From Chlorobiota bacterium (GTDB taxonomy: Bacteria > Bacteroidota > Ignavibacteria > Kapaibacteriales > UBA2268): a stretch of DNA of 64,000 bases. The stretch lies in contig JAXMOE010000001.1 in assembly GCA_034670025.1 (NCBI GenBank), forward strand, positions 229,889 to 293,888, given 5' to 3'. The position numbers and the translations under genes were made by a program. The notes beneath the pieces were generated by a model. It did no database searches and was not told the DNA's origin. It saw nothing but the letters and a program-made list of their open reading frames with translations. Each line of letters begins with the position of its first letter. Position 1 is the stretch's first letter. Of the stretch, positions 16,495 through 35,681 are shown one piece after another.

Positions 16495-17511
16495 TTAGAA
16501 CCATCCATTAGATTTATACCAATCGTAAGTCTCTTTGAATCCTGCTTCTAAACTATGCTTTTGTTCGTAGCCAAAATCTTTCTTTGCTTTTTCAACTGAA
16601 CAAGTCCAATATTTTTGGATAAAATCTATGCTTTTCTCCGAATCAAATACAGGAGGATTTCCAGTAATTCTACCAATTAAGCCATTTACATTACCCATAA
16701 TCTTAACAATTGAGTGAGGGATTCTTAATTTTAAAATTTTATCTTTACCTGCTGATTTAGCCATTGCATTGATAATTGTAGTCCAATCATAGTAATTCTC
16801 TGAGCCAATGAAATAAGTTTCATTTACTGTATTGTCAGAAAATGCGGCATCAACAATTCCTCTACACAAATCCATTGAACTTATAATACTAACATACTTA
16901 TCGTCAAATCCGATTAGGGTGCCTATTCCTTTTTCAGCAGCTTTGAACATTGGCATAGTTGCAGAATCACGTGGCCCATAGACTGCTGGTGGTCTAACAA
17001 TTGTATAAGGAATTATTCCATTTTCAGCAATAATATAGTCTTCTGCCATTTTTTTACTTTTTCCATAAGAAGTAAGAGGGTTCATCTCACACAATTCGTC
17101 TGAGACTTCTTCCAAAGATTTAGAAGGACCAACAGCAGTTTGACTAGATACATGTAGAAATCTTTTAAGTTTAGGCGCATGTTTTTTGGCTGCCTCATAT
17201 AAGTTTTTTGTACCAGACAGATTTGCTCTTACAAAGTCTTCCATTGATTTCGCGGCAGTAAGGCCAGCTGAATGAATAATTACATCAACACCTTCAACTA
17301 TTTTCTCTAATGTTTGTATATCTGATAGCGAAGCCTCGACTAATTCAAAGCCCTTGTTTTCTACCCATCGTAAGTTGCTCGTTTTTCGTACTATACACAC
17401 AACTTCGTGTCCGCGTTCTTTTAGTATATCTGCTATATGACTACCTAAAAATCCAGTTGCACCTGTTACTAATACCCTCATATTACCTCTATCCAAATTA
17501 TTTTTGTACAA
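16495..17511 (-). CDS. NAD-dependent epimerase/dehydratase (SDR family)
   Basis: MRVLVTGATGFLGSHI Rossmann motif. The true start may be the internal Met at MRVLVTG. Confidence 0.85.
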   Translation of the reverse strand: MYKNNLDRGNMRVLVTGATGFLGSHIADILKERGHEVVCIVRKTSNLRWVENKGFELVEASLSDIQTLEKIVEGVDVIIHSAGLTAAKSMEDFVRANLSGTKNLYEAAKKHAPKLKRFLHVSSQTAVGPSKSLEEVSDELCEMNPLTSYGKSKKMAEDYIIAENGIIPYTIVRPPAVYGPRDSATMPMFKAAEKGIGTLIGFDDKYVSIISSMDLCRGIVDAAFSDNTVNETYFIGSENYYDWTTIINAMAKSAGKDKILKLRIPHSIVKIMGNVNGLIGRITGNPPVFDSEKSIDFIQKYWTCSVEKAKKDFGYEQKHSLEAGFKETYDWYKSNGWF

Positions 17512-17646
17512 AATTAGTTGTTTTATTTGAGTTGATTGTAAACATTGGATAAATTGCCAAGAATAAATGTTAAATCCAACATAACAAGTAGGTTACATTC
17601 AAATCAAGAAAGTGTTGTGTAAGAAACGTGCTAAAACATTGTAAAT

Positions 17647-18777
17647 TCAAAAGTTTTTCTTATTAAATTCTATTACTTCTTCAATTTCCTCTGCACTCAT
17701 TTTATTGATATAATGTTTTGATTGAGTTTGTATTGTATGACCAATTAATGAACGTACAACATTATCATTTAGAGTATAATCATTCATCATTTCATTTTCA
17801 ACTAACTTTCTTATTGCATGAAATTTTACTTCTTCTACGTTTTTTATTCCTAACATTTTCCTATAGTTATTAATATGCACTCCCATAATTCTTGACGTTT
17901 GGAGATTAAGCAAATTACTACTCTTAGAAAAACTCTTTTCATTAAACTCTAAGGCTTCTTTTAATAATGGTTCTAATTCAGGTCTAATGGAATAAGGGAA
18001 CTCTCTCCATGTATTATTTTTTCCGTCAATTAATAGTTTTTTAGGTTTGATGTGCCAAGGTTGCATCTTATATACTTCCCCAATCCGCATTCCTGTTATA
18101 CCAATAACTCTTAATACAAAATAAAGTTTAGTTGCTGACATTTTACTTTTGGGCTTACTACAATTGTCAATGTATTTACTTAACTCATGAACATATTTAT
18201 TTAGTTGATTCCTTGAACAAATTGTGAATTTGAATTTAGCTTTTTTAATTTTAATCCAAGGTTTAACAGGATTTGTTGTAATAATGTCAGATTCAATCCC
18301 AAATTTGAATATGGATCTCAATCGCTGAATAGAGGTGTTTATAGTTAAGTCCGAATAATTTTCTATCTCCTTCATTTCAAGAGCTCTTCTATTGACAAAT
18401 TTCGTGATTTCAACCATGTTGTCTAAATAAAAGTCATTATTATCGACAATCCTTTTGATAGAATTAAGAAAAGTTTCTTTAGTATTATCTTGTATGTGCT
18501 GAAACTTTAACTCTTTATATAGCAGAAACAGCTCAGAAAACTTATCAACTCTATTAGTATTAAATCCATTCTCACGATTGTAATATTCGCGAACTCTTTT
18601 ATCTAAGACTTGTATAGCAAAATCTTTGTTAGTTTTCTTCCAAGGTAAGTTCTTTATTGATTTCCTGTCACCAAATACATAGGTGTGGACATATCCATCC
18701 CTCTCAAAACAATAGACACCTTTTCTGTGATCAGGGTGATCCCATCGTCTTCCTTTCTTTTTTCTAGTCTTTCCCAT
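17647..18777 (-). CDS. tyrosine-type site-specific integrase
   Basis: 376 aa. C-terminal catalytic region (R...HAIRK...LIGHT...KHYI) typical of the phage integrase family, with an N-terminal SAM-like domain. Confidence 0.85.
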   Translation of the reverse strand: MGKTRKKKGRRWDHPDHRKGVYCFERDGYVHTYVFGDRKSIKNLPWKKTNKDFAIQVLDKRVREYYNRENGFNTNRVDKFSELFLLYKELKFQHIQDNTKETFLNSIKRIVDNNDFYLDNMVEITKFVNRRALEMKEIENYSDLTINTSIQRLRSIFKFGIESDIITTNPVKPWIKIKKAKFKFTICSRNQLNKYVHELSKYIDNCSKPKSKMSATKLYFVLRVIGITGMRIGEVYKMQPWHIKPKKLLIDGKNNTWREFPYSIRPELEPLLKEALEFNEKSFSKSSNLLNLQTSRIMGVHINNYRKMLGIKNVEEVKFHAIRKLVENEMMNDYTLNDNVVRSLIGHTIQTQSKHYINKMSAEEIEEVIEFNKKNF

Positions 18778-19174
18778 GGTTAGTTCTTTCTTTCAATTTT
18801 TCAGCAAATAATATTATAAATTCGTGTGACTCTTTCTCTTTTATTCGGGAGTTATCGGCTGTAAAAAAAGATAGTAATGTATTCAGTGTATCAGGGAACC
18901 AGTTGAAATCATTCAATAATTCTGGCATAGCAAAATGCCTCTCGATATATGAGAGAGTTGGGAATATAATAGAGCTATCTATCTTGCATTCCTCTAGAGT
19001 ATATAGTTCAAGTTGACAGAATTTATAGAATTTGTCAGCGTGTTCAAAAAGTGATGAGTACTCTATCAACACCTGATCAACATCCTTATCAGTGTTTGAC
19101 AGTACAATTCTTTCAGCAATTCTTAAACATCGAACTCTGAGTCTAATATTAATTTTGTTTTCTGACTGGAGCAA
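18764..19174 (-). CDS. hypothetical protein (between repressor and integrase, overlapping both)
   Basis: 136-aa ORF. The 14-nt and 26-nt overlaps suggest a co-transcribed leftward lysogeny operon. Confidence 0.45.
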   Translation of the reverse strand: MLQSENKINIRLRVRCLRIAERIVLSNTDKDVDQVLIEYSSLFEHADKFYKFCQLELYTLEECKIDSSIIFPTLSYIERHFAMPELLNDFNWFPDTLNTLLSFFTADNSRIKEKESHEFIILFAEKLKERTNHGKD

Positions 19175-19895
19175 AATCTTTAATCACTTTTTTAACAATA
19201 CCAAATATCTTAAAATCTTCTAAGTCACCAAGCTCTATATCTTCAGCATTCTTCGAATCTGACTTTAATAGGATGCTTCCATCCTTTTGATGACACAAGT
19301 GTTTCACAATTGGCATTCCATTTAAGGACCCCACAATTGTACAATCATAACTTGGTTTGCTGTTATAGACTTCAAATATAATTATATCACCCGAAGTCAG
19401 ACCAGCATCTTCCATTGAGTCACCATTTACATAGATTGCATCGTGTGAATCTTCATCTATATTCATACCTAAAGCTAACGGCATATATGTAGTTGGCAAA
19501 TCATTCAAATCAGTTAACGTCCCAGTCGCTGCACTTGCACTCATAATATGCAACTTAATATTTGCGAGCATCCCTTGAAATTGTTTTGGAACTCTATACA
19601 ACTCATCTTTCTTATCTGCAATGTAATCCTCATTTTTCTCTTTAGTCTTAATAGAACTTTTGCTAAGAGCCTCTTTATTAAATGGCTCACCTATTCCGTG
19701 TAAGTACCATTCAATATTAATGCCAGTTTCAGCCAATCTCCTTAATGCCGATTTGTTCTGATAAACTCTATCAGTATTAATGTATGTGTTTATAGTACCA
19801 GGTGAGACGCCTAGTATCTTTGCAAAAACAGTAGGGCTATGATAATGTTCATCAATGAAATCTCTTAGCCTTGATTGTGGTGTATCGCTCATCAT
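19149..19895 (-). CDS. CI/LexA-like phage repressor (N-terminal HTH plus C-terminal S24 peptidase domain)
   Basis: HTH (VFAKILGVSPGTINTYI). S24 signature (VNGDSMEDAGLTSGDIIIFE) with a downstream Lys. Divergent from the rightward early genes. Confidence 0.8.
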   Translation of the reverse strand: MMSDTPQSRLRDFIDEHYHSPTVFAKILGVSPGTINTYINTDRVYQNKSALRRLAETGINIEWYLHGIGEPFNKEALSKSSIKTKEKNEDYIADKKDELYRVPKQFQGMLANIKLHIMSASAATGTLTDLNDLPTTYMPLALGMNIDEDSHDAIYVNGDSMEDAGLTSGDIIIFEVYNSKPSYDCTIVGSLNGMPIVKHLCHQKDGSILLKSDSKNAEDIELGDLEDFKIFGIVKKVIKDFAPVRKQN

Positions 19896-19904
19896 TTACT
19901 CAAT

Positions 19905-20005
19905 TATTTAAGAAAAATATGAAAAATATTAAGAAAAGATTTGTTGTTCTTAAATAATTTATTAAATTCGTAAAGACAGAATAAGAATAAATAAGAAAAA
20001 CATAA
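19905..20005. promoter_or_regulatory. divergent lysogeny-switch control region with iterated TTAAGAA/TTCTTAA half-sites (operator array A)
   Basis: ATTATTTAAGAA at 19906-19917 is the exact reverse complement of TTCTTAAATAAT at 19948-19959. Extra TAAGAA copies at 19927, 19982 and 19992. Lies between the repressor gene and the first rightward ORF. Confidence 0.6.
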
Positions 20006-20030
20006 TCATTCACAATTAGAGGTCATACAA

Positions 20031-20252
20031 ATGCCAGCATATATAATCAAATCAGTTTCCATGGATAAAGATGCTTTTGATTACATCTGTGATGTGGTAG
20101 ATGGTAAAGATAAAGCTAGAAAAGACTTTTCAAAAGCTTTTAACTACACTATGCACAAACACATTGCAATGGAAAAAGAAATCATTGAACTTCGTAAGAA
20201 ACTATTACTGCAATCTGACGACCAGTCAGAAGTGAACTTAAGAAAAAATTAA
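20031..20252 (+). CDS. hypothetical early protein (Cro position)
   Basis: 73-aa ORF, the first rightward gene after the switch region. No recognisable HTH. Confidence 0.45.
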   Translation: MPAYIIKSVSMDKDAFDYICDVVDGKDKARKDFSKAFNYTMHKHIAMEKEIIELRKKLLLQSDDQSEVNLRKN

Positions 20253-20335
20253 GAAAATGCAAAGTAAAAAAACGAAGCATTTTAAGAACGGATAAGAAAG
20301 AGTTTAAGAATATATGAATATTGAAATAAGAAAAA
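20236..20335. promoter_or_regulatory. TTAAGAA repeat array (six copies in about 100 bp)
   Basis: (T)TAAGAA at 20238, 20249, 20282, 20293, 20304 and 20327, far above the chance expectation for this composition. Confidence 0.5.
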
Positions 20336-20520
20336 CGGAACGAAAGCAAAGAGCTATTAGACTTAATGATGCCGAAAAGGCTGACTTGCACACGGTAGCC
20401 AAGTCAATATTGGATTTAACGGAATCAGAAGCAGTAGCGATGATATTCACAGCAATAGCAGAAGAGTATCGAAAGAATAAAGACTCAGAAGAGATTAACA
20501 TAAAAATAAAAAAGGGATAG
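20314..20520 (+). CDS. hypothetical small protein
   Basis: 68 aa, co-directional with the early operon. An antisense ORF 20304..20564 also exists. Confidence 0.35.
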   Translation: MNIEIRKTERKQRAIRLNDAEKADLHTVAKSILDLTESEAVAMIFTAIAEEYRKNKDSEEINIKIKKG

Positions 20521-20601
20521 CTTTTGTAAGCTACCCCAAAGAGTTGCAATGAGTGGACGCTCATTTGCCATGTAAATTCACAACAAATATAAGGAGAAGT
20601 T

Positions 20602-20883
20602 ATGGAACTTCAAAATTATTTCCCCAGAGACGACATTAGAAGGAAAGCCGAAGATGTTGCAAAGTACATAGTAGAAGAGGTAAGACCTGACGAGAGGGAC
20701 GAGGCACTCTATTCAATTTTCTTAGAAGTAGAAAATGAATTGAGAAAAAAAGGAGATACATTCTCCTCTCAATTCACTTGTTCTGAACTTCTCGAAAAAC
20801 TATTTACAAAATCAAGAGACGGTCGCTATTTGGTAGCAGTTAAAGACGGCAGTTCAGTAAAACTACTAAGTCAAAATGCCTGA
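20602..20883 (+). CDS. hypothetical early protein
   Basis: 93-aa ORF in the early operon. Confidence 0.45.
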   Translation: MELQNYFPRDDIRRKAEDVAKYIVEEVRPDERDEALYSIFLEVENELRKKGDTFSSQFTCSELLEKLFTKSRDGRYLVAVKDGSSVKLLSQNA

Positions 20884-21145
20884 GATAATAGACAAATACA
20901 GACTTATGAGTATCACAGAAGCCTCAAAGGCCTTTAAGATATGTCGTGAGGAATTAACAAAATGTTTCCATAGAGGTCTCAAATACCAAAAGGTTGGTAC
21001 AAGGAAAAAAGTGTGCTGGCAGTGGTGGATTGACTACATGGAATCTGAAAATAATAATCAGCCAAAATCAAAACCTAAAAAAAGTAAGAAAAGTGGAATG
21101 TTCAAAATGGATAAGTCCACACGAGAATCAATTTATTCACTATAA
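20876..21145 (+). CDS. hypothetical protein, possible HTH/excisionase-like DNA-binding protein
   Basis: MSITEASKAFKICREELTK resembles HTH_17/AlpA-like helices. Basic C-terminus. Confidence 0.35.
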   Translation: MPEIIDKYRLMSITEASKAFKICREELTKCFHRGLKYQKVGTRKKVCWQWWIDYMESENNNQPKSKPKKSKKSGMFKMDKSTRESIYSL

Positions 21146-21159
21146 AGGAAATAAAAATT

Positions 21160-22188
21160 ATGCCATTAAATATAATAAAATCGAACGAAGAAATTAAAAT
21201 AAGTAGAGTAGTAGGATTAATCTACGGCTTTCCAGGGAGTGGTAAAACATCCACAGCAAACACATCTAATAATCCTGTCACACTTGACTTTGACAACGGT
21301 TCTCACCGTTCAGGATTTAGGAAAGACGTAATGCGTATAGATAGATGGGAAGACATCCAGTCAAATATGAAGTCATTTTTTAATGCAATAGAGACTTACG
21401 ACACAGTAGTTATTGATACAATCTCTACATGCTTAGATTATATAGGAGAATACTTAGTTAGAAATGACCCAAAACTCGGGAACAATAAACTAAGATATTA
21501 TGGAGCATTGAAAGATACATTTGGAAAGTTTGTACAGGCACTCAAAACAAACGGTAAAGATTTAATCTTTATTGCTCAAGTAAAAGAGAAAGAAGAAAAT
21601 GGTGTATCGGTAAAGAGACCTGATATAACTGGTGGTTCTTATGACATTGTTACTTCACTTTGTGACTTCATTGGCTACCAATACTATAAGGACAAAATCA
21701 GAGAATTAGATTTTGACCCAACTGAAGAATACATTGGTAAAAACCCTATGAGTTTCGATAAAGTAGATTTACCTAACTATGCTACTGAACCTGACTTTTT
21801 CTCACATAGAATAGAAGAAATTAAAGATAGGCTAGGGAATATCTCTCAAGAGCAAAAGGAAGCAGCAGACACGGTTAAAAATATAATATTGGAAATCAAA
21901 TCAGTTAAGACTGTAGATGATCTGAATACTGTTGTTAGTGATATCAAGAATGCTGGCCATCCAAAGCCGATTATTTCTCAAATTAAAAAATCAATATCTG
22001 ATAAGATGAATGAGATAGGTGCAAAACTCAATAAAGAATCTAATCTGTATGAGTTGGTTGAGGCTGATGCTAAAAAACCTACAAAAGCTAAAGAGAAAAA
22101 AGCACCAGAGCCAAGAGCCGAACATGCCGAAGAGGAAGTGCCTGCTAAGACGAATGAGACTAAGAAAGAAGAGGAGTCAGTATTTTGA
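21160..22188 (+). CDS. phage P-loop ATPase (Sak4/RecA-like AAA-family), K/E-rich C-terminal tail
   Basis: Walker A GFPGSGKTS near the N-terminus. 342 aa. Confidence 0.5.
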   Translation: MPLNIIKSNEEIKISRVVGLIYGFPGSGKTSTANTSNNPVTLDFDNGSHRSGFRKDVMRIDRWEDIQSNMKSFFNAIETYDTVVIDTISTCLDYIGEYLVRNDPKLGNNKLRYYGALKDTFGKFVQALKTNGKDLIFIAQVKEKEENGVSVKRPDITGGSYDIVTSLCDFIGYQYYKDKIRELDFDPTEEYIGKNPMSFDKVDLPNYATEPDFFSHRIEEIKDRLGNISQEQKEAADTVKNIILEIKSVKTVDDLNTVVSDIKNAGHPKPIISQIKKSISDKMNEIGAKLNKESNLYELVEADAKKPTKAKEKKAPEPRAEHAEEEVPAKTNETKKEEESVF

Positions 22189-22841
22189 TAAAGGTATCAG
22201 TATCAACACTCGACACATTTAATAAATATATCAATGGACATACCAATAGAGCAGGCAATTTAATGTACCCTGACGTAGAGAGTTTCCTTGAATATTTAGA
22301 TAGCGATTATGTATCTACTGCCAAAATGCAATATGGAACTGCTGTAGATGCAATCATTGAAAATCCTGATAAGTATTGGAATGCAAGGACTCGGGAATAT
22401 ATATATGATGGGATAGTAGTTCCTGAGGAATACATTTCTAAGATAACACCATTCTTTGATTATAACTTTCCATTTCAAGTAAGTGGTAAAACAGAATTTA
22501 AGATTGGCGACACAACGGTTATTCTTTCAGCAAGAGCAGACCAATTGCACGGACTTGACACAGTAGAATTTAAGACAGTCTGGAATGGTTATTCCTATGA
22601 AAAGTATGATAAATCAGTTCAATGGAAGTGCTACAACTTAATTTATGACACCCCTAGAGTGAGGTATGTAGTAGCTGATTCTAAAGTTAATTCAGGTGGA
22701 GATATAAAGCTTAAGAGTGTATATCAATTTTATCTCTATCGAGAATCAACACATTACTTAGAGATTAGCTCACTTTTATCACAGTTAGTTGACTTCCTAA
22801 TAACCCACAATCGAATCGAAAAAATGGAGAAAGCAGTATGA
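22185..22841 (+). CDS. hypothetical protein, possible PD-(D/E)XK-type nuclease
   Basis: ...SARADQL...VEFKT... arrangement compatible with a D...ExK motif. Located next to the ATPase as in Sak4 plus exonuclease modules. Confidence 0.3.
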   Translation: MIKVSVSTLDTFNKYINGHTNRAGNLMYPDVESFLEYLDSDYVSTAKMQYGTAVDAIIENPDKYWNARTREYIYDGIVVPEEYISKITPFFDYNFPFQVSGKTEFKIGDTTVILSARADQLHGLDTVEFKTVWNGYSYEKYDKSVQWKCYNLIYDTPRVRYVVADSKVNSGGDIKLKSVYQFYLYRESTHYLEISSLLSQLVDFLITHNRIEKMEKAV

Positions 22842-23131
22842 CAACATCAAACATTACAGAAGACCATAAATTCTTTCTTGTCACTTTTGGATGTGTTGCA
22901 TGCCCCGGTGCACAATACAGGGTAAGATATGGGAAAGTACAAACAGAGGTAGGGGATTATTTAGATATAAGACCTTATGACGAACCGAATAGAATATTCA
23001 GGATAAGAAAAAAAGATGCTTATGACACTTTGGACGAAGCGAAACATAAAGCATTATCATTAATAGAATCTAATACAGTAACGGCTAAATCAGTATTAGA
23101 CTCATCAGTACAATTATTAAAATTTAATTAA
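22838..23131 (+). CDS. hypothetical protein
   Basis: 97-aa ORF with 4-nt coupling overlaps to its neighbours. Confidence 0.4.
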   Translation: MTTSNITEDHKFFLVTFGCVACPGAQYRVRYGKVQTEVGDYLDIRPYDEPNRIFRIRKKDAYDTLDEAKHKALSLIESNTVTAKSVLDSSVQLLKFN

Positions 23132-23143
23132 GGAGAAATAGCC

Positions 23144-24421
23144 ATGCAAATTCAAAAAATTAACATTCGTTCCGTTTTAGGAATAGAAGAATTCGAACTA
23201 TTCCCAAACAAGGTAAATAAAATATCTGGTAAGAATGGGAAAGGAAAGACATCAATAATAGAAGCTATCAAAACCGCCCTCGGTGGTGGTAATGATGCTG
23301 AGTTAATTCACAAGGGAGAAGACGAGGGAGAGATAGTCATCATATTTGACAATAATATGCATCTGAAAAGGAGAATCCGTGGACCCAAAGCAGGTATATT
23401 CGAACTCCATGATTCAGATGGAAGAGAAATCAAATCACCTCAAAAACAACTAAACAAACTCTACGATGCTATAGCTGTTAATCCTGTAGAGTTTATCAAT
23501 GTAAAAGATAAGGAGAGAGTAGAATTATTACTCGAAGCACTTCCAGTTGACTTAAACTTAGAAGAATTGTTATCTTATATAATCAGTGAGATTGATTTAC
23601 TAGGAACAGCTAAGGATAAGCGTGAGAGCTTGCAAGATGTTTATGAAAGGAAATACACAAACGCACTTGAATTTATTGATGATATTCTGAAAGAATTATC
23701 TGACGAAAGGAGATATTTAAAGCGTTCACTAGACCAAGCAAAAGCAACAATAGAACCACTCTCACAATCAATAGTGGAGTTGGATATAGATGAGGATGAG
23801 GTCAAAGAAGAGATTGCACAAATCAATGAAAAACTTGAAAAAGCATCAGATCAATTCAATAGAAACTTATCTGAAATCCAAGAAGAGTATGATAAAGCAG
23901 TTGAAAAATTACGTGATAAAAAAGAAAAGTCAACAGACGAGCTTAAAGACAGATATAGCAACTTTAAGAGTGAGAAAACCAATGCAAGAACTTCCTTGCA
24001 GGAGAAGTTAGATACTTCGGCCGCACTCTTAAAAACAAAAGAAGAGCTAGAGAATCAAAAGAACAAAGCTAAGACTTTAGAAAAACAATGGGATGACCAA
24101 CAGACCTCTATTCAGAACTTAAGAGATTACAAATCCACTCTACTAAAATCAATACCAATTGATGGATTAGAACTCAACGACGGAGTAATATATAGAGGTG
24201 GAGTGCCTTATTCCAAACTAAATAAAGCACAACAGTTAGAAATAGCAATTGAGGTTGCTAAGCTTAGAACCAAAGACATCGGTGTTATATGTGTAGATGG
24301 AATTGAAATACTTGACTCCGACAGTCAAAAATTACTATTCGAGAAGTTTGAAAACTCTGGACTACAATTCTTCCTAACAGAAGTATCAGATAATGAAGAA
24401 TTAGAAATAACAACGGATTGA
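23144..24421 (+). CDS. SMC/SbcC/RecF-like ATPase (AAA_23-type), recombination/replication
   Basis: N-terminal Walker A GKNGKGKTS, long coiled-coil middle, C-terminal Walker B/D-loop (VICVDGIEILD). Confidence 0.55.
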   Translation: MQIQKINIRSVLGIEEFELFPNKVNKISGKNGKGKTSIIEAIKTALGGGNDAELIHKGEDEGEIVIIFDNNMHLKRRIRGPKAGIFELHDSDGREIKSPQKQLNKLYDAIAVNPVEFINVKDKERVELLLEALPVDLNLEELLSYIISEIDLLGTAKDKRESLQDVYERKYTNALEFIDDILKELSDERRYLKRSLDQAKATIEPLSQSIVELDIDEDEVKEEIAQINEKLEKASDQFNRNLSEIQEEYDKAVEKLRDKKEKSTDELKDRYSNFKSEKTNARTSLQEKLDTSAALLKTKEELENQKNKAKTLEKQWDDQQTSIQNLRDYKSTLLKSIPIDGLELNDGVIYRGGVPYSKLNKAQQLEIAIEVAKLRTKDIGVICVDGIEILDSDSQKLLFEKFENSGLQFFLTEVSDNEELEITTD

Positions 24422-24430
24422 GGAAGGATA

Positions 24431-24682
24431 ATGGCATTTATAAATATTGACATTAACATTGATGAATACATAGATGAAGTTTCTGATGACTCACTCCTAA
24501 GGGAAGTGAAGCGAAGAAATAAGCAAGCTAATAGTTTATTTAACAGACTTGATGAAGATACTGAATTTCCTATTAAAATAAATGGTATGGATGATGAGAT
24601 AAAGAAAGATATTCTCATAAAGTGGCTTGGTGAAAATTTCAAAAGATTATCTATAACTGAATTTGAACAAAAATTTAATTGA
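24431..24682 (+). CDS. hypothetical protein
   Basis: 83-aa ORF. Confidence 0.35.
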   Translation: MAFINIDINIDEYIDEVSDDSLLREVKRRNKQANSLFNRLDEDTEFPIKINGMDDEIKKDILIKWLGENFKRLSITEFEQKFN

Positions 24683-24693
24683 GATAGATCTAT

Positions 24694-25659
24694 ATGAAAC
24701 TACGTAAATACCAAGAGGATGTAAAGTCCAAGATACGAGAATCGTTCCGAAAGGGCAATCAGAGTGTAATGCTCCAATTGCCCACAGGAGCAGGGAAGAC
24801 GGTATCGTTTGTGAACATAGCAAAAGATGTTATTGACAATGGGAAAAAGGTATTGATACTGGTCCACCGATTAGAATTAATTAATCAAACATTTGATAAA
24901 TGTCTTAGACATCATATGCAAGTTTCTGTCATTCATTCATCACATGTTTATAAGAAATACTGTCCACTACAAATTGCATCAGTAGCAACATTAGCGAATA
25001 GAGTTAGAGGTAAGAAGTCCAAAACACTTCCTGAAAATGTAGATTTAATTATAATAGATGAAGCTCATCACGCAACTGCAAACAGTTGGAGAGATATTCT
25101 TAAGTTCTATCCTGAGGCAAAAGTGTTAGGAGTAACTGCCACACCTATTCGAGCAAATGGTGAAGGCTTTGAAGATTTATTTGATGAATTGATTGTTGGT
25201 GTAACTCCAAAATATCTAATCGAAAACGGATATTTAGCTAAGCCAAGACTGTTTGTTAATCCATTGAGGTTCGACCTTTCACAAGTTAAAGTGAAGTCAA
25301 CAGGAGATTATAACGAAAGGGATTTGGTAAATAGCTATGAGCAGTCAACCACTTACGGAGACCTTATAAAAACATGGAGAGACAAAGCACTCGATATGAA
25401 AACGGTTGTGTTTGGAATTAACATTGACCATGTTAAGAAAATTGTCGAAGCATTTAATGAAGAGGGAATACCTGCAGTCCACTTGTCATCTGACTTTGAT
25501 ACTAGAACAAGGAATAGAGTAATCAAAGACTTCATAGTAAAGGATAGCTACCAGTACGGTGATATGACCGAAGACGAGAAAGCGGAATTAGATGCTACAT
25601 TCTACATTCTCACAAACGAACTGTTGAACCTCAATCAAGCAATGGAGGTAAAGCAATGA
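24694..25659 (+). CDS. SF2 DEAD/DEAH-box helicase domain protein
   Basis: Motif I LPTGAGKT, motif II IIIDEAHH, motif III TATP. Confidence 0.65.
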   Translation: MKLRKYQEDVKSKIRESFRKGNQSVMLQLPTGAGKTVSFVNIAKDVIDNGKKVLILVHRLELINQTFDKCLRHHMQVSVIHSSHVYKKYCPLQIASVATLANRVRGKKSKTLPENVDLIIIDEAHHATANSWRDILKFYPEAKVLGVTATPIRANGEGFEDLFDELIVGVTPKYLIENGYLAKPRLFVNPLRFDLSQVKVKSTGDYNERDLVNSYEQSTTYGDLIKTWRDKALDMKTVVFGINIDHVKKIVEAFNEEGIPAVHLSSDFDTRTRNRVIKDFIVKDSYQYGDMTEDEKAELDATFYILTNELLNLNQAMEVKQ

Positions 25660-26006
25660 AAAACAAAGAGAAACAAGAGCTACTTGAGAAAATAGACTCT
25701 TTAACAAACAACAACACTGCACTACAATTTGCATACACCGAGCTAAAAGCAAAGTATGATAAAGTTGCTTGGGTGAATGGAGCAACCAAATTTGTTTCCT
25801 TCCTAGAGTATTCTAAGCTAGAAGCTAAATACCACAAAGAATGTTTTAAAAACAGAAAACAAGAAAAGTCCATAGTCAGATTAGAAAGTGCAGAAAAAAT
25901 ACTTAAGAATAGGAATGAGAAACTAGAACAATTGATTCATGAGCTAAGAGGATATAAAGGCCCAATAGTTCTTGATAGAACTCATTCATACAGCCAAGAA
26001 GAATAA
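25656..26006 (+). CDS. hypothetical coiled-coil protein
   Basis: 116-aa ORF overlapping the helicase stop. Confidence 0.4.
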   Translation: MKNKEKQELLEKIDSLTNNNTALQFAYTELKAKYDKVAWVNGATKFVSFLEYSKLEAKYHKECFKNRKQEKSIVRLESAEKILKNRNEKLEQLIHELRGYKGPIVLDRTHSYSQEE

Positions 26007-26010
26007 TACA

Positions 26011-26056
26011 GCAGACTTAATCTCTCTCATTTCAGGATACACTGCTAACACCCTGC
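26011..26056. repeat. direct repeat copy 1 (about 45 bp; partner at 36511-36556)
   Basis: GCAG..TCTCTCTCATTT..CAGGAT.ACAC.GCTAACA shared with 36511-36556 at roughly 85% identity. Confidence 0.55.
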
Positions 26057-26082
26057 TGATTTACGTCAGTGGGGTTTTTTTT
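26051..26082 (+). terminator. intrinsic terminator ending the early operon
   Basis: CCCTGCTGA / TCAGTGGGG stem (with G-U wobbles) and a T8 run. Confidence 0.6.
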
Positions 26083-26162
26083 AGGAAAGTAGAAACAGAC
26101 AATAAAGAACTATAATTATTAAATGATATTCTTGTTACACTTTAAGATGTTGAATAAAAAAT

Positions 26163-26184
26163 TCTTAAATTTGTTTCTAAATTA
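26163..26184 (+). promoter_or_regulatory. third copy of the TTCTTAAAT-N7-TAAATT motif, 30 bp upstream of the OMP moron gene
   Basis: TTCTTAAATTTGTTTCTAAATT versus A TTCTTAAATAATTTATTAAATT and B TTCTTAAATTATTTACTAAATT. Confidence 0.45.
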
Positions 26185-26213
26185 TAATATTATTAATTAA
26201 TCTTTGAGTTAAA

Positions 26214-26840
26214 ATGAAAAAATCAGTATTACTGTTATTTTTAGGACTATTCATATCTGGTTCTACTTTATGTGCAAAATTCGACTTAGGAGCCTTAAAT
26301 GGTATTCATATGACTGATGCTGAATTTGAACCAAGTAGACCACTATCAAAGACTCTTTATGCTATTCCTCAGTTTGGATTATTTGCTAAATATAGTTTGA
26401 ATCATAACTTAAGTATTCAATCATCACCTTCAATTACGTCGAAGAAAATCGTTGCAAATCAAATTATAAATATTGAACTAACATCTGAGTTTATCGAAAT
26501 TCCAATCCTATTAAGCTATGAATTTGATTTTGGACTGTTTAGGCCTTATGTTTTTGTTGGCCCTAATATTGGAATAATTGTAAACCCGAAATCAACTACA
26601 TACTTTAATGGTAAAGTGGAAGAAGATATTAGTGAAGATGTAGCAGATATTGAATATGCAATTAAAGGTGGTCTAGGCTTAGAACTTGAATTTGAAACTT
26701 TTTCGTTCTTCGGACAAGCATATCTGAACTATGGTCTAAATGACTTATATACACCGCCAAGTGGTATCACTTTCCCAGAAGATGTTTACTTAAGAACATA
26801 TGGTATTCAAGCGGGAATTTCATTCCCTCTTCTTAAATAA
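26214..26840 (+). CDS. small outer-membrane beta-barrel protein (OmpX/Ail/Lom-like), signal peptide
   Basis: N-terminal signal peptide, alternating amphipathic beta-strands, aromatic-rich C-terminus. 208 aa. Confidence 0.6.
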   Translation: MKKSVLLLFLGLFISGSTLCAKFDLGALNGIHMTDAEFEPSRPLSKTLYAIPQFGLFAKYSLNHNLSIQSSPSITSKKIVANQIINIELTSEFIEIPILLSYEFDFGLFRPYVFVGPNIGIIVNPKSTTYFNGKVEEDISEDVADIEYAIKGGLGLELEFETFSFFGQAYLNYGLNDLYTPPSGITFPEDVYLRTYGIQAGISFPLLK

Positions 26841-26867
26841 TTTAGAATCAAAATTATCTCCTTTCAA

Positions 26868-26896
26868 GCCCTGCTTTTTAAGTGGGGTTTTTTTTA
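26868..26896 (+). terminator. intrinsic terminator after the OMP gene
   Basis: CCCTGCT-ttttta-AGTGGGG stem and a T8 run. Confidence 0.5.
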
Positions 26897-26950
26897 TACC
26901 GAAAAATAGTCTGATTGCCCATTGAACTATAAGTTCAGTGAGCCCCTAAA

Positions 26951-27568
26951 ATGCTTACATATTTGCTAAAGATTTATATTGGGAGTAAGTTGCTATATGT
27001 TAAACTATTACTCCAAGGAGGAGTTATGAGAAGGTTCTGTTTAAAAATGTTTGTTCTATTCATTCTTATGGGTCTACAAACTGTAATTGCTAAGGAAAAA
27101 ATTGACGACCCATTTGATTTAGATGAAATTATAAAAATAATCAATATTAGCTTAGATAAAGTTTCTGAAGAAGTTGATTTAGTAAAAGCTGAGATTGTTT
27201 TATCTAGAAGTTTTTCAGATAAGTTTAATGGTGGTTTTAGTTTCTTTTGGTCATCAAAAAAAGACTGGCAAGAAGATAACAACTCCACTTTAACTTTTAC
27301 ATATGAACCCAGTAGTACAAAAGGTGGACAAAAGAATCTTTCAGACAACCTTAATAGATCTGTATTAAATGCAGTTGGGCTTTGGAAAAAATCTAAATTA
27401 AAAATTGATGGGTTAAAGAATACTTATTATACGGTAGATGTGAAGTTTATGCTTAGTGAAGATGCTAAACATGGGCTTAACCTAGAGCTTTTTGGTGTTG
27501 AATTAGCTGCCTCTGATAACAGTATTGTAAAATCCTCCCACTCTGTGAAATTAACATTCAAGAAGTAA
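26951..27568 (+). CDS. hypothetical secreted protein (likely true start at MRRF... near 27026, with signal peptide)
   Basis: Signal-peptide-like MRRFCLKMFVLFILMGLQTVIA. Confidence 0.5.
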   Translation: MLTYLLKIYIGSKLLYVKLLLQGGVMRRFCLKMFVLFILMGLQTVIAKEKIDDPFDLDEIIKIINISLDKVSEEVDLVKAEIVLSRSFSDKFNGGFSFFWSSKKDWQEDNNSTLTFTYEPSSTKGGQKNLSDNLNRSVLNAVGLWKKSKLKIDGLKNTYYTVDVKFMLSEDAKHGLNLELFGVELAASDNSIVKSSHSVKLTFKK

Positions 27569-27657
27569 ATAATTAATACCACTATTCGGTTATACTAGAA
27601 TAGAAATATTTCAACCGTGATTAGTAATTCTAATAAACACATAAACAAGGAGCAAAT

Positions 27658-28749
27658 GTGGACATCGTAAAAATGAAAAAATTATTTAACAAAATTCTTG
27701 AATCTACATATGGGATAACAGAATGGAATCCTGGGAATTTATTTGTATTCGAGGGAAAAGAAGTTCCAAAAGATATGAACGGATTCGAAACACTCAGTGA
27801 TCAATTTCAATCAGACGCTTCTCTTCAACAAAAATGCTTTACAAGTAATATAGAAGTGAGTACAGCAGGAAAACTCTTTACAGTAAGCACTTATGTAATA
27901 CAAGTAAAGTGGTATGAATTAATGGCGGGGTATGCAGTTTATAGACCAGTCAGATGGTTTAGCATAAATATTGTTTTTGATGAAGAGACAAATATTATTC
28001 CAAAATCAAGCACTATCAAGATGTATGAAGATGGGAAGGAGGTAGAAGATATGAAAATACCTTTGCCTCCTCTCCCAGGGGTTTTAGGTAACGCTATTGA
28101 GATAGCAAGTTGGGGAGCTGAGTTTATAGAATGGATAAAAGAGTATTTACCAGATGATTGGGGGGCACTAGGTCTTGCTGTTAGTGAAATAGCTGAGATA
28201 ATTAGTATGGCAATAAGTACTGCAGACTCTATTCTTGATGGAGAAACTAATTTAGAATTACTTATAGAAAATAGTCTTTTAATGTCCACTACACTCTCTA
28301 CAACATATAATTTTGAACCTGACGGAGCTCACGGTTATTGCTACATAGACAAATGGAATGAAAAAGGAGAAGATGCTCGGATATATCAGCCTAGGATAAT
28401 TGCAGGTGCAGCTAGCTGGACTATGTTGTTAAAGACTGATAGAATGAGATCTTGGGTCTATAATGATGACCACTTGATTTTATCTATTACTGGTGATTAC
28501 AAAGGGAATATACTCGGAGTCATGGCATCATGGAAGTTCGTTGATGAAGATCCAGAGGAAGGCGAATTTTCAAAATCTACAGAAGAGGAGGGACAGAATT
28601 GTTTAGATGTGTGGCAAGCAGAAGTTAGGAACTATTTGGGAAGCCCTGTCCCAAAAGAATTTACTCAGTGGTATGTAGAAACAGTTCTACGTCCTTGGTT
28701 AGATACAATATATTCACTAGGTATAAAAGAACCTGATAATCCAAAATAG
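27658..28749 (+). CDS. hypothetical protein (363 aa)
   Basis: Long ORF with no recognisable motif. Confidence 0.5.
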   Translation: MDIVKMKKLFNKILESTYGITEWNPGNLFVFEGKEVPKDMNGFETLSDQFQSDASLQQKCFTSNIEVSTAGKLFTVSTYVIQVKWYELMAGYAVYRPVRWFSINIVFDEETNIIPKSSTIKMYEDGKEVEDMKIPLPPLPGVLGNAIEIASWGAEFIEWIKEYLPDDWGALGLAVSEIAEIISMAISTADSILDGETNLELLIENSLLMSTTLSTTYNFEPDGAHGYCYIDKWNEKGEDARIYQPRIIAGAASWTMLLKTDRMRSWVYNDDHLILSITGDYKGNILGVMASWKFVDEDPEEGEFSKSTEEEGQNCLDVWQAEVRNYLGSPVPKEFTQWYVETVLRPWLDTIYSLGIKEPDNPK

Positions 28750-28772
28750 ACATTTGATTATTATTAAATAAC

Positions 28773-28806
28773 CCTACTAGCCTTTTTTTGGTTAGTGGGG
28801 TTTTTT
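28773..28806 (+). terminator. intrinsic terminator after the moron cassette
   Basis: CCCTACTAGCC / GGTTAGTGGGG stem and a T6 run. Confidence 0.55.
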
Positions 28807-28856
28807 ATTGTTTCTACTATACCCTTCCTCTATCAATCCAATACTCAAACATATTT

Positions 28857-28960
28857 TTTAAGAAAATAATAAGAAAAACCTTGTTATTCTTAAATTATTT
28901 ACTAAATTAGTAAGAACAAATAAGACGGAATAAGAAAATCAATATGAAAAATAAGAAAGA
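28857..28960. promoter_or_regulatory. operator/promoter array B: second copy of the switch-region module with iterated TAAGAA half-sites
   Basis: 28870-28940 aligns at about 80% identity with 19930-20001. TAAGAA copies at 28859, 28871, 28911, 28930 and 28950. Confidence 0.55.
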
Positions 28961-29090
28961 GAGTTTGGATTTAGACAAGTTTGATTTGGGAATTGAGCTC
29001 CGAAAGCTTCAAAGGTCATTGTTATTATCTGACTTAATAATGCCATTAGTGTTAATTGTTCTTGTTCTTATTGGGTATCATTTGATATGA
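28944..29090 (+). CDS. small hydrophobic protein (48 aa), not in the ORF track
   Basis: ATG immediately after array B. The C-terminal hydrophobic stretch LIMPLVLIVLVLIGY looks transmembrane. Its stop overlaps the next ATG (ATGA), suggesting translational coupling. Confidence 0.35.
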   Translation: MKNKKESLDLDKFDLGIELRKLQRSLLLSDLIMPLVLIVLVLIGYHLI

Positions 29091-29575
29091 TGAAGATAAA
29101 TGATTTCTCAAAGAAGTATGATTATCCAATCAGGGCAATCCGATATTTCTTAGAAACCAAGTTGACAAAAGGAAAACATTTCTACGTCAGAGGAGGTAGG
29201 TTAGTTTTACCTGAAAAGACTCAGGAGTTAATTCACAATAGATTTAAAGCACGTAGAGATTACCCAATTTCTTACAGACGGATTAATAATGAGTTCGGAT
29301 ATATAATTGAAGAGTTGAAAGACTTCACTATCGAAAACCAAGACTACATAATGGTCGGTAAGCTCTATCACTTCTCAAATGAGGGATATAGTAAAGTAGT
29401 TCGATACAGTCAGGGCGAGAGGTTTAAGGAAACCCCCAAGAGAATAACTGAAACAATTCCCTCGGTAGGAGTAACAAGGATGAACAACTTCTCCGAAATG
29501 ACAAAAAGGGAAAAAGAACATTGGGCTGACAATGTTAGACTAACGAAAGAAGCAAGAGAGTTAATATTCAAATAG
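29087..29575 (+). CDS. hypothetical protein
   Basis: 162-aa ORF. Confidence 0.45.
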   Translation: MMKINDFSKKYDYPIRAIRYFLETKLTKGKHFYVRGGRLVLPEKTQELIHNRFKARRDYPISYRRINNEFGYIIEELKDFTIENQDYIMVGKLYHFSNEGYSKVVRYSQGERFKETPKRITETIPSVGVTRMNNFSEMTKREKEHWADNVRLTKEARELIFK

Positions 29576-29584
29576 AGGAATTAA

Positions 29585-30013
29585 ATGGCATCAGAGTTAA
29601 TACCAAACATCACACGAGACCAGATAGTAAGAGCTGGACTGGACATTGTAATAGTATCAGGAAAGAATAACAGCAGTTTTAATGTTGGAGACAAACTCTA
29701 TTTGAGAGCATCAAACGGAGCAAAGCCACAGGAGAAGGTATTCAACGAGATGGCAGAGAATGATGAATATGACGAATACAACAGGGATGATAATGAGGAT
29801 GTATTCGCCACAATCGAGAAAGTGACAAAGTTTCAAGTATCTACTTACAACAAAGAGAAAAAGCAGTATGATATATTCATCAATGATGTTTATTTATCCC
29901 TAACAAAACAGCAAACATTCTTAAGCGAGCAAGGATTTACAGTAGATGCATTCTTAGACAGATTTGGTAAGAGTGGTATGTTCAACGGTTATCTAATCAA
30001 ATTTGCATTATGA
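29585..30013 (+). CDS. hypothetical protein
   Basis: 142-aa ORF. Confidence 0.45.
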   Translation: MASELIPNITRDQIVRAGLDIVIVSGKNNSSFNVGDKLYLRASNGAKPQEKVFNEMAENDEYDEYNRDDNEDVFATIEKVTKFQVSTYNKEKKQYDIFINDVYLSLTKQQTFLSEQGFTVDAFLDRFGKSGMFNGYLIKFAL

Positions 30014-30312
30014 AGTTAGACATTTCAAATAAGATTTCTGAAAAAATAGAACTATCGGATTTAAGTTCTGATCTGCAGTATTTAGCAGAAGTGATTGGGC
30101 TTGATTTGGTAAGGAAGTTAATAGTTCAAATGGGTGGTACAGGAAATCCAATTTATATTCCTGACACCTCTTCCTTTGACAAAGCAATACATAAAATGGT
30201 GGAAGATGACTTCCCCGGAAAGCATTTAAGAGATATTTCCTATGACACAGGAATATCATTAAGAAGATTAAAGAGTATCAATAAAAAATATAAGAAAGAA
30301 CACAGTTCGTAA
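30010..30312 (+). CDS. Mor/C-family phage transcriptional activator
   Basis: LAEVIGLDLVRKLIVQMGGTGNPIYIP (GG..iYIP motif) and a C-terminal HTH (RDISYDTGISLRRL). About 100 aa. Confidence 0.5.
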   Translation: MKLDISNKISEKIELSDLSSDLQYLAEVIGLDLVRKLIVQMGGTGNPIYIPDTSSFDKAIHKMVEDDFPGKHLRDISYDTGISLRRLKSINKKYKKEHSS

Positions 30313-30355
30313 AACAACTCTAAAACGGACTGTAGCAAGGTGTTGGAATGCACCT

Positions 30356-30658
30356 ATGTCCATCAGGGGAATTCCATCTCTCTCAAAGACGATTCCCCTG
30401 TATTATAAAAATACAGGAATAGAAATGAATGATGAACAATTACAAGAGTTAATTAGTGAAAAGTCTGACAAGCTCATAGCTAAACTGGAATGGCATGATA
30501 CACTCGATGTACAGAATGCAGTAAGGAAGGCATACAAGCAAGGGTTTAAGGATGGTGTAGATTATACCCATGAAAGCCAAAAGGCTATGGTTAAGGAAGA
30601 AGTTAAGCCCAAGACGAGTAAGAGTAAGAAGACAAGTAAAACTAAGAAGAAGAAATAA
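30356..30658 (+). CDS. hypothetical basic protein
   Basis: 100-aa ORF with a Lys-rich C-terminus. Confidence 0.4.
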   Translation: MSIRGIPSLSKTIPLYYKNTGIEMNDEQLQELISEKSDKLIAKLEWHDTLDVQNAVRKAYKQGFKDGVDYTHESQKAMVKEEVKPKTSKSKKTSKTKKKK

Positions 30659-30890
30659 CGGCACTGGTAGCACAGTTATCCCATATAGTAATAGTTGCTG
30701 TGCTACTGGATGTCGGTTTTAATTAAAAACCATACTCAAATGAGTGAAGAATACACAAGAAGGGCAGGTAATGCTGGGGGTGAACTTAATGCACCCTAAG
30801 CCCCCATAGTTGGGTATGGTAATATTTAACAGCAAAGGTAGTACGGACTCCATATAGAAATTAAATGTTGATAACAATATACATTATACA

Positions 30891-30928
30891 AGTGGGGGTT
30901 TATTGTTTAGTTCCCCCACTGTTTTTTA
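30891..30928 (+). terminator. intrinsic terminator
   Basis: AGTGGGGG / CCCCCACT stem with a 14-nt loop, followed by GTTTTTT. Confidence 0.6.
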
Positions 30929-30952
30929 AAACAAAGAAATAGGAAATAGAAA

Positions 30953-31414: not shown

Positions 31415-31420
31415 AATTTT

Positions 31421-31493
31421 AATCCACCCTTGTTCGCTCATGCGACCTTTCCCCCAGGAACTAAAAGCATATTCCTCTGACAAGGGTGGGATT
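31421..31493. repeat. inverted repeat AATCCACCCTTG / CAAGGGTGGGATT with a 48-nt loop
   Basis: 12/13-bp near-perfect stem immediately after the stop codon at 31414, at the left edge of the AT-rich island. Confidence 0.45.
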
Positions 31494-31737
31494 GATAAAA
31501 GAATTCAACTTTTCGTTATAATATAGAGCCTACAGTATCTGACATTTAAACCTCTAAACATCCAAAAAAACAAAAGCTTTAAGTGTTGCTCTAAAAGTTC
31601 AACGAGCCAATTAAATAAAGCAAATCTTGTAAATAGTTTTATTTTTACATAATTTAATCTGTTAAACGTAAACTAACAGTTTACAACCGTATAAAATTAT
31701 TGTTTAATTTGACTAATAATCATTACGTGGAGTTTAG

Positions 31738-33391: not shown

Positions 33392-33590
33392 TTGAATCCT
33401 TCATGTATGTTAAAAAATGTATTAGAATAAACACAAAACTAGTAGTTTAGTTACATTTTATATCGAGTTTATAAATCTGATAACTTCTCTTTATGTTTAC
33501 TAAATACGTCCGACTGCATCGCTCCCTTATTAAAAGCTCATAAATTCTTAAAATATTGATATACTTTACTTTAAAATCTGATAGAAGTTA

Positions 33591-35579: not shown

Positions 35580-35681
35580 TTTGTTTTAATAATACTCATT
35601 ATCCATAAAAAAATAATTATTCTGTTTCATTACTGCTGGTTTGTAATAGATACTTGTGAAAAGAGCTCTCTACCACTTACC

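Follow-up and report, generated by a model that had tools for sequence, protein, structure and literature searches.

The stretch of DNA analysed here, called the window, is 64 kb from a Chlorobiota bacterium (contig JAXMOE010000001.1, positions 229,889 to 293,888), and this work deals with the arrays of the hexamer TAAGAA found at and near the lysogeny switch of a prophage within it. The left 17.5 kb are host DNA, with the genes nusA, infB, rbfA, truB, ribF, rpsO and pnp and those of a penicillin amidase and an epimerase, and the prophage begins near 17600. A leftward operon (17647-19895) comprises the repressor gene, the open reading frame (ORF) ORF136, for which no family match was obtained, and an integrase gene (17647-18777). 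Its stop-to-start overlaps are conserved in all relatives, and the integrase would be co-transcribed with the repressor, in an arrangement like that of phage P2. The rightward early genes start at 20031, and their promoter, PR, lies 45 bp from the divergent repressor start codon and drives ORF1, ORF2 and the replication genes. A second rightward promoter, promoter P2 (to be distinguished from the phage of that name), stands further downstream.

An earlier note on this DNA had described the hexamer as iterated at a density above chance, and the counts bear this out. On both strands, the window holds 123 TAAGAA/TTCTTA hexamers, about one per 520 bp, and at least four of them within 120 bp occur at just three places, namely 19909-19997, 20239-20332 (called by the scan as 20195-20310) and 28859-28957 (clusters 1, 2 and 3 in Table 1). 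The largest cluster reached seven hexamers, against a maximum of five in dinucleotide shuffles of the whole window. When the three A-rich regions were shuffled locally, 0.41-0.53 copies were obtained as compared with the 5, 6 and 6 observed, and none of 2000 shuffles matched the observed counts. Chance and base composition are excluded as causes of the clustering. Neighbouring copies on the same strand are spaced by 9-12 bp or by multiples of this distance (21-23, 32-33, 41-44 and 50-52 bp), the best period being 10.3-10.5 bp, and their orientation in the window and in most relatives follows the order > > > < > >. The hexamers had been interpreted as palindromic half-site pairs; most of them proved to be direct repeats, in phase with one turn of the helix, and the only inverted copy is placed in the promoter spacer.

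The strings reported in the earlier note were all present, several of them displaced by 1-3 bp. The inverted 12-mer pair is exact, with ATTATTTAAGAA at 19903-19914 and its reverse complement TTCTTAAATAAT at 19947-19958 (given as 19906-19917 and 19948-19959), and the second cluster (given as 20236-20335) does contain six TAAGAA copies, at 20239-20332. Similarly, the segment of about 70 bp said to recur at about 80% identity yielded 58 of 72 identical positions (80.6%) in the alignment of 19930-20001 with 28870-28940, and five TAAGAA lie in the third cluster. In the 42-nt core of this duplicated module, the two copies share 35 nucleotides, and the next-best ungapped match in the window shares 27 of 42. 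The longer motif TTCTTAAAT-N7-TAAATT was found without mismatches at 19947, 26162 and 28887 and with one mismatch at 19893-19914 on the minus strand, which makes four matches with up to one mismatch in the window versus 0.15 expected. The copy preceding the outer membrane protein (OMP) gene, also free of mismatches, was located at 26162-26183 (given as 26163-26184). With up to two mismatches, TTCTTAAATWATTTA gave 15 matches versus 3.8 expected, including exact copies at 19947, 26830 and 28887 and a mirror copy with one mismatch at 19900-19914. The 15-mer TTCTTAAATAATTTA is identical at 19947 and 26830, so that its recurrence at 26830-26844 was also confirmed.

Two of the clusters are organised as cassettes around a promoter, and both cassettes are intergenic, the first beside the divergent repressor gene and the second right after a terminator. 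At PR, the hexamers both flank and lie inside TTTG-N19-TAAATTCG. The three upstream hexamers (U3, U2 and U1) are separated by 9 and 12 bp, as they are in relatives L004 and L009, and the dyad TTAAGAA-N11-TTCTTAA (19929-19953), the sole dyad and with 17 bp from centre to centre, is centred on the PR -33 element. The two leader hexamers (D1 and D2) precede a Shine-Dalgarno (SD)-like AGAGG and then the ORF1 ATG at 20031, and the PR leader RNA is unstructured (folding z = -0.28). Regarding the type of promoter, the sigma-A consensus of Bacteroidota is -33 TTTG / -7 TAnnTTTG (PMC9723704). TTG-N19 is found in both cassettes, the -7 boxes of PR (TAAATTCG) and promoter P2 (TAAATTAG) each agree with TAnnTTTG at 7 of 8 positions, and those of the relatives all read TAwwTT[AC]G. 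Among the host genes, nusA displays TTG-N19-TATTTTTG at 3471-3500 and rpsO TAATTTTG at 9836; host genes lack SD sequences, and the flanks of the relatives carry Por_Secre_tail domains of the type IX secretion system (T9SS) and DUF4835 domains. PR and P2 are accordingly predicted to be Bacteroidota-type -33/-7 promoters (TTG-N19-TAnnTTnG), and not sigma-70 -35/-10 promoters. A scan for the latter was not enriched (46 matches versus 49.6 expected) and the sigma-70 reading was dropped, the host being Bacteroidota-like in its lack of SD sequences, its nusA and rpsO promoters, the domains in the flanks of the relatives and the only named homologue of the repressor.

Since the terminator upstream of P2 closes the preceding unit, P2 must initiate on its own, and the downstream copy does head a separate transcription unit, as had been claimed for a second rightward operon. 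This operon encodes a small membrane ORF, several unknown ORFs and a Mor-like activator (30010-30312; Pfam 7e-4, phrog_836 1.9e-6), and the hexamer at 28952 falls within ORF48 (ATG at 28944). Just upstream of the P2 array there is also a C-rich box, CTATACCCTTCCTCTATCAA (28812-28836), which is unusual for AT-rich DNA, is conserved in L012, L015 and L018 and may be the site for a second P2 regulator.

Table 1. Position of the genes, promoters and hexamer sites in the window.
Feature	Position	Strand	Description
Repressor gene	19149-19895	-	248 amino acids; Cro/C1-type helix-turn-helix (HTH) plus C-terminal S24 autopeptidase; first gene of the leftward operon
Leftmost long site	19900-19914	-	Reads TTCTTAAATAATTGA; 14/15 identical to the site in the PR spacer; the start codon of the repressor is 5 bp away
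Hexamer U3	19909-19914	+	TAAGAA, inside the leftmost long site
Hexamer U2	19918-19923	+	TATGAA, one mismatch
Hexamer U1	19930-19935	+	TAAGAA
PR core promoter	19940-19970	+	-33 TTTG (19940-19943), 19-nt spacer, -7 box TAAATTCG (19963-19970)
PR spacer site	19947-19961		Inverted TTCTTA (19947-19952) within the 15-mer TTCTTAAATAATTTA
Leader hexamers D1 and D2	19982-19987 and 19992-19997	+	TAAGAA, 10 bp apart, sense orientation
Cluster 1			TAAGAA starts 19909, 19930, 19982, 19992 (+); TTCTTA 19947
ORF1	20031-20252	+	73 amino acids; first PR gene, in the Cro position, conserved
Intra-operon array	20239-20332	+	Six sense TAAGAA across the ORF1 stop, the 61-nt ORF1-ORF2 spacer and the ORF2 start
Cluster 2		+	TAAGAA starts 20239, 20250, 20283, 20293, 20305, 20327
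ORF2	20314-20520	+	68 amino acids; conserved, 60-79% identical across phages; no SD
OMP-gene core copy (third 22-bp copy)	26162-26183	+	TTCTTAAAT-N7-TAAATT upstream of the OMP beta-barrel gene (26214-26840); 15/15 specified bases
Isolated 15-mer	26830-26844	+	Exact copy of the PR spacer site over the OMP stop codon, just before the OMP-gene terminator
Intrinsic terminator	28770-28802	+	Closes the upstream unit; equivalents in L015 and L016
P2 upstream hexamers	28859, 28870	+	TAAGAA, 11 bp apart
P2 core promoter	28881-28910	+	TTG (28881-28883), 19-nt spacer, -7 box TAAATTAG (28903-28910)
P2 spacer site	28887-28901		Inverted TTCTTA (28887-28892) within TTCTTAAATTATTTA
P2 leader hexamers	28911, 28921, 28931, 28952	+	TAAGAA, TAAGAC, TAAGAA, TAAGAA; spacings 10, 10 and 21 bp
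Cluster 3			TAAGAA starts 28859, 28870, 28911, 28931, 28952 (+); TTCTTA 28887; one-mismatch TAAGAC 28921

We compared the switch region of the window with those of eight distinct relatives (L001, L004, L006, L008, L009, L010, L011 and L019). All eight keep the gene order and, column for column, the cassette, and the word changes at every site together. At PR, the window, L004, L006, L008 and L009 carry 4-5 TAAGAA each; L001 carries none and five TA[CT]GAA, L010 none and five TAATAA, L011 one and six TAATAA, and L019 none and five TAGTAA. The dyad at -33 changes alongside, TTAAGAA-N11-TTCTTAA becoming TTATGAA-N11-TTCATAA in L001, and L019 alone displays a one-turn dyad, TAGTAA-N5-TTACTA. Modules homologous to P2 were found in L012, L015, L016, L017 and L018, each with the word of its own phage: the spacer word is TTCGTA in L012, an L001-type phage, and TTCTTA in L015, L016 and L018, and L017 presents a fifth word, AATATTTAAT, in the same P2 slots. 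Over the up to 20 kb inspected per relative, the own word clusters only at PR, at the ORF1-ORF2 junction and at P2, plus one further module in two phages. The latter is a cassette with the own word at L012:7810-7900 and L017:13520-13640, where it heads unrelated genes that have no homologue in the window; an equivalent third module was sought in the window at 30659-30952 and 31415-31737 and none was found. Given these further cassettes before unrelated genes, the cassette behaves as a portable promoter-operator unit. Wider scans of genome and metagenome contigs disclosed only loci of the known classes, and those of viral contigs the L001-type phage alone.

For the four classes with known repressors (that is, leaving out the L017 word), we then set the word beside the recognition helix of the repressor (residues 32-40). 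TAAGAA goes with G-T-[IL]-N-[ST]-Y, TAYGAA (TA[CT]GAA) with S-T-L-N-T-Y, TAATAA with G-S-L-N-G-Y and TAGTAA with G-A-L-N-N-Y. The strongest single evidence for a link between word and repressor came from L010, whose repressor is a mosaic: the N-terminal domain shares 80% identity with that of L011, a phage that also has TAATAA, 61-69% with those of the L004-L009 phages and 53% with that of the window, and the C-terminal domain is 79-85% identical to those of the TAAGAA phages and 56% to that of L011. The word, as this mosaic shows, goes with the N-terminal, DNA-binding part of the repressor and not with the protein as a whole. As the word and the repressor recognition helix change together among related phages, we believe that the TAAGAA hexamers are probably operators of the CI-like repressor at two promoters, PR and P2. 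The earlier note had assigned operators of the divergent repressor to at least three promoters. That operators are shared by more than one promoter is strongly supported by the covariation, and PR and P2 are the only two promoters that are well supported; the OMP-gene promoter, named as the third, shares the 22-bp core and lacks the flanking array.

The changes in the relatives also bear on readings in which no repressor takes part. An A-run stands after every hexamer (TAAGAAAA, TACGAAAA, TAATAAAA, TAGTAAAA), the period is about 10.5 bp, and the upstream hexamers occupy the proximal UP-element position known from E. coli. All this would suit a protein-independent promoter architecture made of phased A-tracts, that is, curved UP-element-like DNA, with the 70-bp duplication representing a duplicated strong promoter. 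Curvature, however, fails to explain that positions 3-4 of the word change alike at 5-6 sites per lineage, inverted spacer and leader copies included, or that the change follows the recognition helix of the repressor; moreover, the host promoters in the window lack such arrays, and we consider this explanation very unlikely. We give practically no credit to another proposal, that the arrays are replication-origin iterons, or a partition or packaging site, bound by an initiator or a ParB-like protein. It would account for short direct repeats with helical phasing and for a P2 copy just downstream of the replication block (helicase and primase/DnaB_C in relatives), but the cassette holds a complete promoter, stands at two or three transcription-unit starts and heads unrelated genes in the relatives. 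Furthermore, typical iterons are much longer than 6-bp units, and it is the N-terminal domain of the repressor, and no initiator, that covaries with the word.

The repressor matched Pfam Peptidase_S24 (PF00717; 3.4e-13) and the transcriptional repressors of phrog_4 (1.3e-23). In the AlphaFold2 (AF2) model, its 70 N-terminal residues form a five-helix HTH of the Cro/C1 type (helices 21-28 and 32-40; predicted local distance difference test, pLDDT, 76-91), and Foldseek superposed this domain on the N-terminal domains of P22 c2 (3jxb; root-mean-square deviation 2.1 A, 69 columns), 186 CI and CapH. A hidden Markov model alignment to UmuD paired GDSM (Ser160) with the GDSM of UmuD, and IVKHL (Lys198) with TVKKL (Lys97). 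The linker contains a conserved motif, S-A-A-T-G (residues ~121-125). The family is rare, with 12 proteins among 5.8 billion, and the sole named homologue is from Candidatus Kapaibacterium (Bacteroidota); a megablast of 17500-30500 versus a phage collection returned no match. In the Ca. Kapaibacterium relative (L011/L014/L021), the residue aligned with Lys198 is Arg and no Pfam S24 domain is listed, and on this sequence basis its repressor may not be self-cleaving.

The sites, their phasing, the promoters around which they lie, the domains of the repressor and the covariation of word and helix are thus shown, and from them we infer how the switch might work: the binding itself, its stoichiometry and cooperativity, its induction in the SOS response and what the intra-operon array does. 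The HTH plus S24 repressor would have as its recognition unit (T)TAAGAA(A), and a cassette would consist of two or three direct hexamers upstream of -33, one inverted in the -33/-7 spacer and two to four direct ones in the leader, all about one helical turn apart. In the lysogen, repressors joined by their C-terminal domains would occupy these sites cooperatively along one face of about 90 bp of DNA (approximately -60 to +30) and, once bound, would shut out RNA polymerase from PR and P2 by occluding in each of them the -33 element, the spacer and the start site. Upon DNA damage, RecA-stimulated self-cleavage (Ser160/Lys198) would part the DNA-binding domain from the oligomerisation domain, and with the cooperativity lost PR and P2 would both fire. 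Further repressor would most likely bind downstream of PR at the 20239-20332 array, which would then hinder read-through as a roadblock or be a partner in cooperative binding or looping; its role is the least certain step of this mechanism. A more specific version can be put forward only tentatively, and we hold it possible though doubtful: that a CI-type repressor reads a 6-bp word as phased head-to-tail arrays coating about 90 bp at each early promoter, that the sense intra-operon array is an orientation-dependent, stoperator-like roadblock to elongation, that the code lies in bases 3-4 of the word versus residues 33, 34 and 37, and that the cassette is portable, standing before varied operons and accessory genes.

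The intra-operon array merits separate consideration. The earlier note had included this cluster in the switch. The cluster is real, and it is intergenic and inside the PR operon, covaries only in part with the switch words and holds no recognisable promoter within 20239-20332. In the L010 phage it consists entirely of TAATAA, and the ORF1-ORF2 spacer of L019 also holds its own TAGTAT/TTACTA pair. All 11 hexamers in transcribed parts are sense and none is antisense, whereas the other early genes hold 15 sense and 11 antisense copies. This bias, together with an unstructured leader and an ORF2 devoid of SD, would fit an action of the leader and ORF1-ORF2 copies in the mRNA, as an A-rich unstructured translation enhancer or as the site of an RNA-binding protein, and A-rich, SD-less initiation regions are favoured in Bacteroidota mRNAs (PMC6847099). 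Yet the untranscribed copies (those upstream of -33 and the inverted one in the spacer) covary with the leader copies, ORF1 has an SD-like AGAGG of its own and no Rfam family was found, so that we regard an action in the mRNA as highly improbable. The ORF1-ORF2 spacer was also considered as an RNA element and discarded, as the only structure it forms is a weak A/U hairpin (z = -2.5), which the relatives do not conserve; the Rfam search gave no relevant family. Right behind the ORF1 stop, AATGCAAAGTAAAAA (20256-20270) is near-invariant in all relatives except L011, and the hexamers surrounding it vary. It was tried as a leftward -7 box (a PRE-like promoter) and rejected, being one base short of TAnnTTTG and having no -33 element.

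ORF1 and ORF2 are the first genes behind PR, and a Cro partner had been proposed for the repressor. ORF1 does sit at the Cro position, but it matched no family or fold in Pfam, PHROGs or PDB profiles and its single-sequence AF2 model, one long helix, was uninformative; no Cro homologue was recognised, and ORF1 may have a Cro-like role at the hexamers. ORF2 has almost no class-specific columns and does not covary with the operator class. An impression by eye that ORF1 and ORF2 might be ribbon-helix-helix proteins obtained no support from Pfam, PHROGs, PDB profiles or the ORF1 model. An early lytic protein, with ORF1 as the Cro analogue or ORF2 as candidates, could nevertheless be the main binder of the arrays, or of the intra-operon array and some of the switch sites, which would make these a Cro-type or autoregulatory set of operators. 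Several ORF1 columns differ between operator classes, and the TAAGAA just upstream of ORF2 is unchanged in L001 and L019, as would fit a conserved binder such as ORF2. However, the N-terminal segments of ORF1 and ORF2 are identical in L004 (TAAGAA) and L010 (TAATAA), and yet the intra-operon array of L010 reads TAATAA; neither protein shows a DNA-binding family or fold, and the L010 repressor mosaic ties the word to the repressor N-terminal domain. We therefore rate this alternative as unlikely, although it is partly compatible with binding by the repressor, because lambdoid Cro and CI share operators. Behind ORF2, the ORF2-ORF3 spacer (20506-20604) is conserved in all relatives and contains two hairpins (20514-20537 and ~20547-20570), with compensatory changes at 4 of their base pairs among 7 phages. 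Taken on the minus strand, the first hairpin plus its T-run reads as a leftward intrinsic terminator, and the element could be a nut-like antitermination element or a barrier to leftward transcription into the switch.

Several observations weigh against hexamers read by the repressor. The case is built on sequence covariation in few lineages, with four classes with known repressors of which three consist of 1-2 phages. The dimers of known CI, LexA and Bacteroidota LexA-like proteins bind dyad-symmetric sites (PMC8565304), and most sites here are head-to-tail, unlike the dyad-symmetric operators typical of CI and LexA systems; the inverted pair, with 17 bp from centre to centre (about 1.6 helical turns), fits a symmetric dimer poorly. 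In L001 and L019, the two hexamers closest to the start of ORF2 read TAAGAA despite the different words at their switches; they may be sites for a different protein, have some other role or be left over from recombination. ORF1 differs between operator classes at positions 37, 42, 43, 48 and 49, and could share or own some of the sites. As to the repressor, no Ala-Gly or Cys-Gly cleavage dipeptide is evident in its linker, and no convincing promoter was found for its gene. Lastly, the words sit in A-tracts, and intrinsic curvature may contribute independently of any protein.

Outside the two cassettes, a perfect -7 box, TAAATTTG (26166-26173), overlaps with the core copy that precedes the OMP gene; no hexamer array flanks this copy, and a control of this promoter by the repressor is unproven. 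The same holds for the isolated 15-mer at 26830-26844 as a repressor site, although about 0.003 copies would be expected per window (a post hoc estimate assuming independent, identically distributed bases). A second intergenic repeat, AAGTTCA[GA][TC]GAGC, unrelated to TAAGAA, was found at 26931-26943, 31595-31607, 35933-35945 and 35985-35997 (4 matches versus 0.6 expected), always on the plus strand and upstream of accessory or unknown genes; it may be the site of another regulator or a middle/late promoter element. The prophage also carries an accessory block (32645-41000), whose genes lie for the most part on the opposite strand and have no counterparts in the relatives examined, with lectin/Laminin_G_3, a hybrid PAS histidine kinase/response regulator (33591-35579), a small HTH_3, DUF1828 and DUF6978. 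The possibility that the hexamers are arm sites for the integrase was dismissed, the arrays being 2.3 kb from the prophage end.

CI-type immunity is a well-known type of system; it is the repeat layout that is unusual, and the host lineage is unstudied. Lambdoid operators are 14-18-bp pseudo-palindromes bound by symmetric dimers, with three per control region. The present locus resembles the lambdoid CI/Cro/OR-OL switches (lambda, P22 c2, 434) in that a repressor with a Cro/C1-type HTH and an S24 domain is divergent from an early lytic promoter, in that multiple putative operators overlap the promoter and are reused at a second early promoter kilobases away, and in that operator and recognition helix covary among heteroimmune relatives. 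It differs from them in its 6-7-bp head-to-tail words, spaced by 9-12 bp and numbering 5-7 per region from about -60 to +30, in its Bacteroidota -33/-7 promoters and in the absence of a recognisable Cro homologue. In phage P2, the repressor and the integrase are encoded in one operon. This is also the case here, and the locus is similar to P2-type immunity in its directly repeated putative operators that vary among heteroimmune relatives. Two reports describe the C operators of P2, WPhi and P2 Hy dis as direct repeats whose sequence, spacing and placement with respect to the promoter vary (PMC1904268, PMC1904263), and the second one describes P2 C as a small protein without S24, not cleavable in the SOS response, in a system of two convergent promoters (PMC1904263). 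In contrast, the locus studied here has an S24 repressor, a divergent arrangement, longer arrays and a second promoter at which they are reused.

Asymmetric sites placed at promoters and in intra-operon gaps, with an orientation that follows transcription, have been described in Cluster A mycobacteriophages (L5 gp71/TipsytheTRex), where the L5 repressor, a monomer that lacks S24 and has two DNA-binding domains, recognises a 13-bp site dispersed over more than 20 positions (PMC9283540). These stoperators and the present sites are alike in being asymmetric, intra-operon and oriented with transcription (all 11 transcribed copies are sense), but here the words are of 6 bp, in three tight clusters instead of more than 20 dispersed sites, and the repressor is of the CI type with S24. 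Closer in host are the non-canonical LexA proteins of Bacteroidetes, with a CI-like HTH plus S24, for which an origin from a phage repressor has been argued; they are chromosomal SOS regulators and bind the palindromes GGA-N5-TCC or CTAA-N5-TTAG in electrophoretic mobility shift assays (PMC8565304). They share with the present repressor the phylum-level host group and the domain make-up, whereas the latter is encoded by a prophage and would read an unrelated word, for the most part as direct repeats. That an S24 repressor can act on direct repeats has a precedent in the LexA of alphaproteobacteria, which, according to the same paper, reads GTTC-N7-GTTC with an 11-bp period (PMC8565304). It differs in having a winged-HTH N-terminal domain, two repeats per box and a host regulon rather than phage immunity.

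In the literature on lysogeny switches of Bacteroidota, the chromosomal LexA-like regulators were all that our searches disclosed. Little is established about such switches in this phylum, and nothing in the Kapaibacterium-like lineage, and the locus offers a complete and testable model, with a defined repressor, two phylum-specific promoters and natural specificity variants, TAAGAA, TAYGAA, TAATAA and TAGTAA, that pair with changes in two or three residues of the recognition helix. Such a system suits the questions of how immunity specificity evolves and how an S24 repressor uses direct-repeat arrays, and genetic tools for Bacteroidota could draw orthogonal repressor/promoter pairs from it. 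Should the intra-operon array indeed block elongation, control of the stoperator kind would not be confined to the mycobacteriophages.

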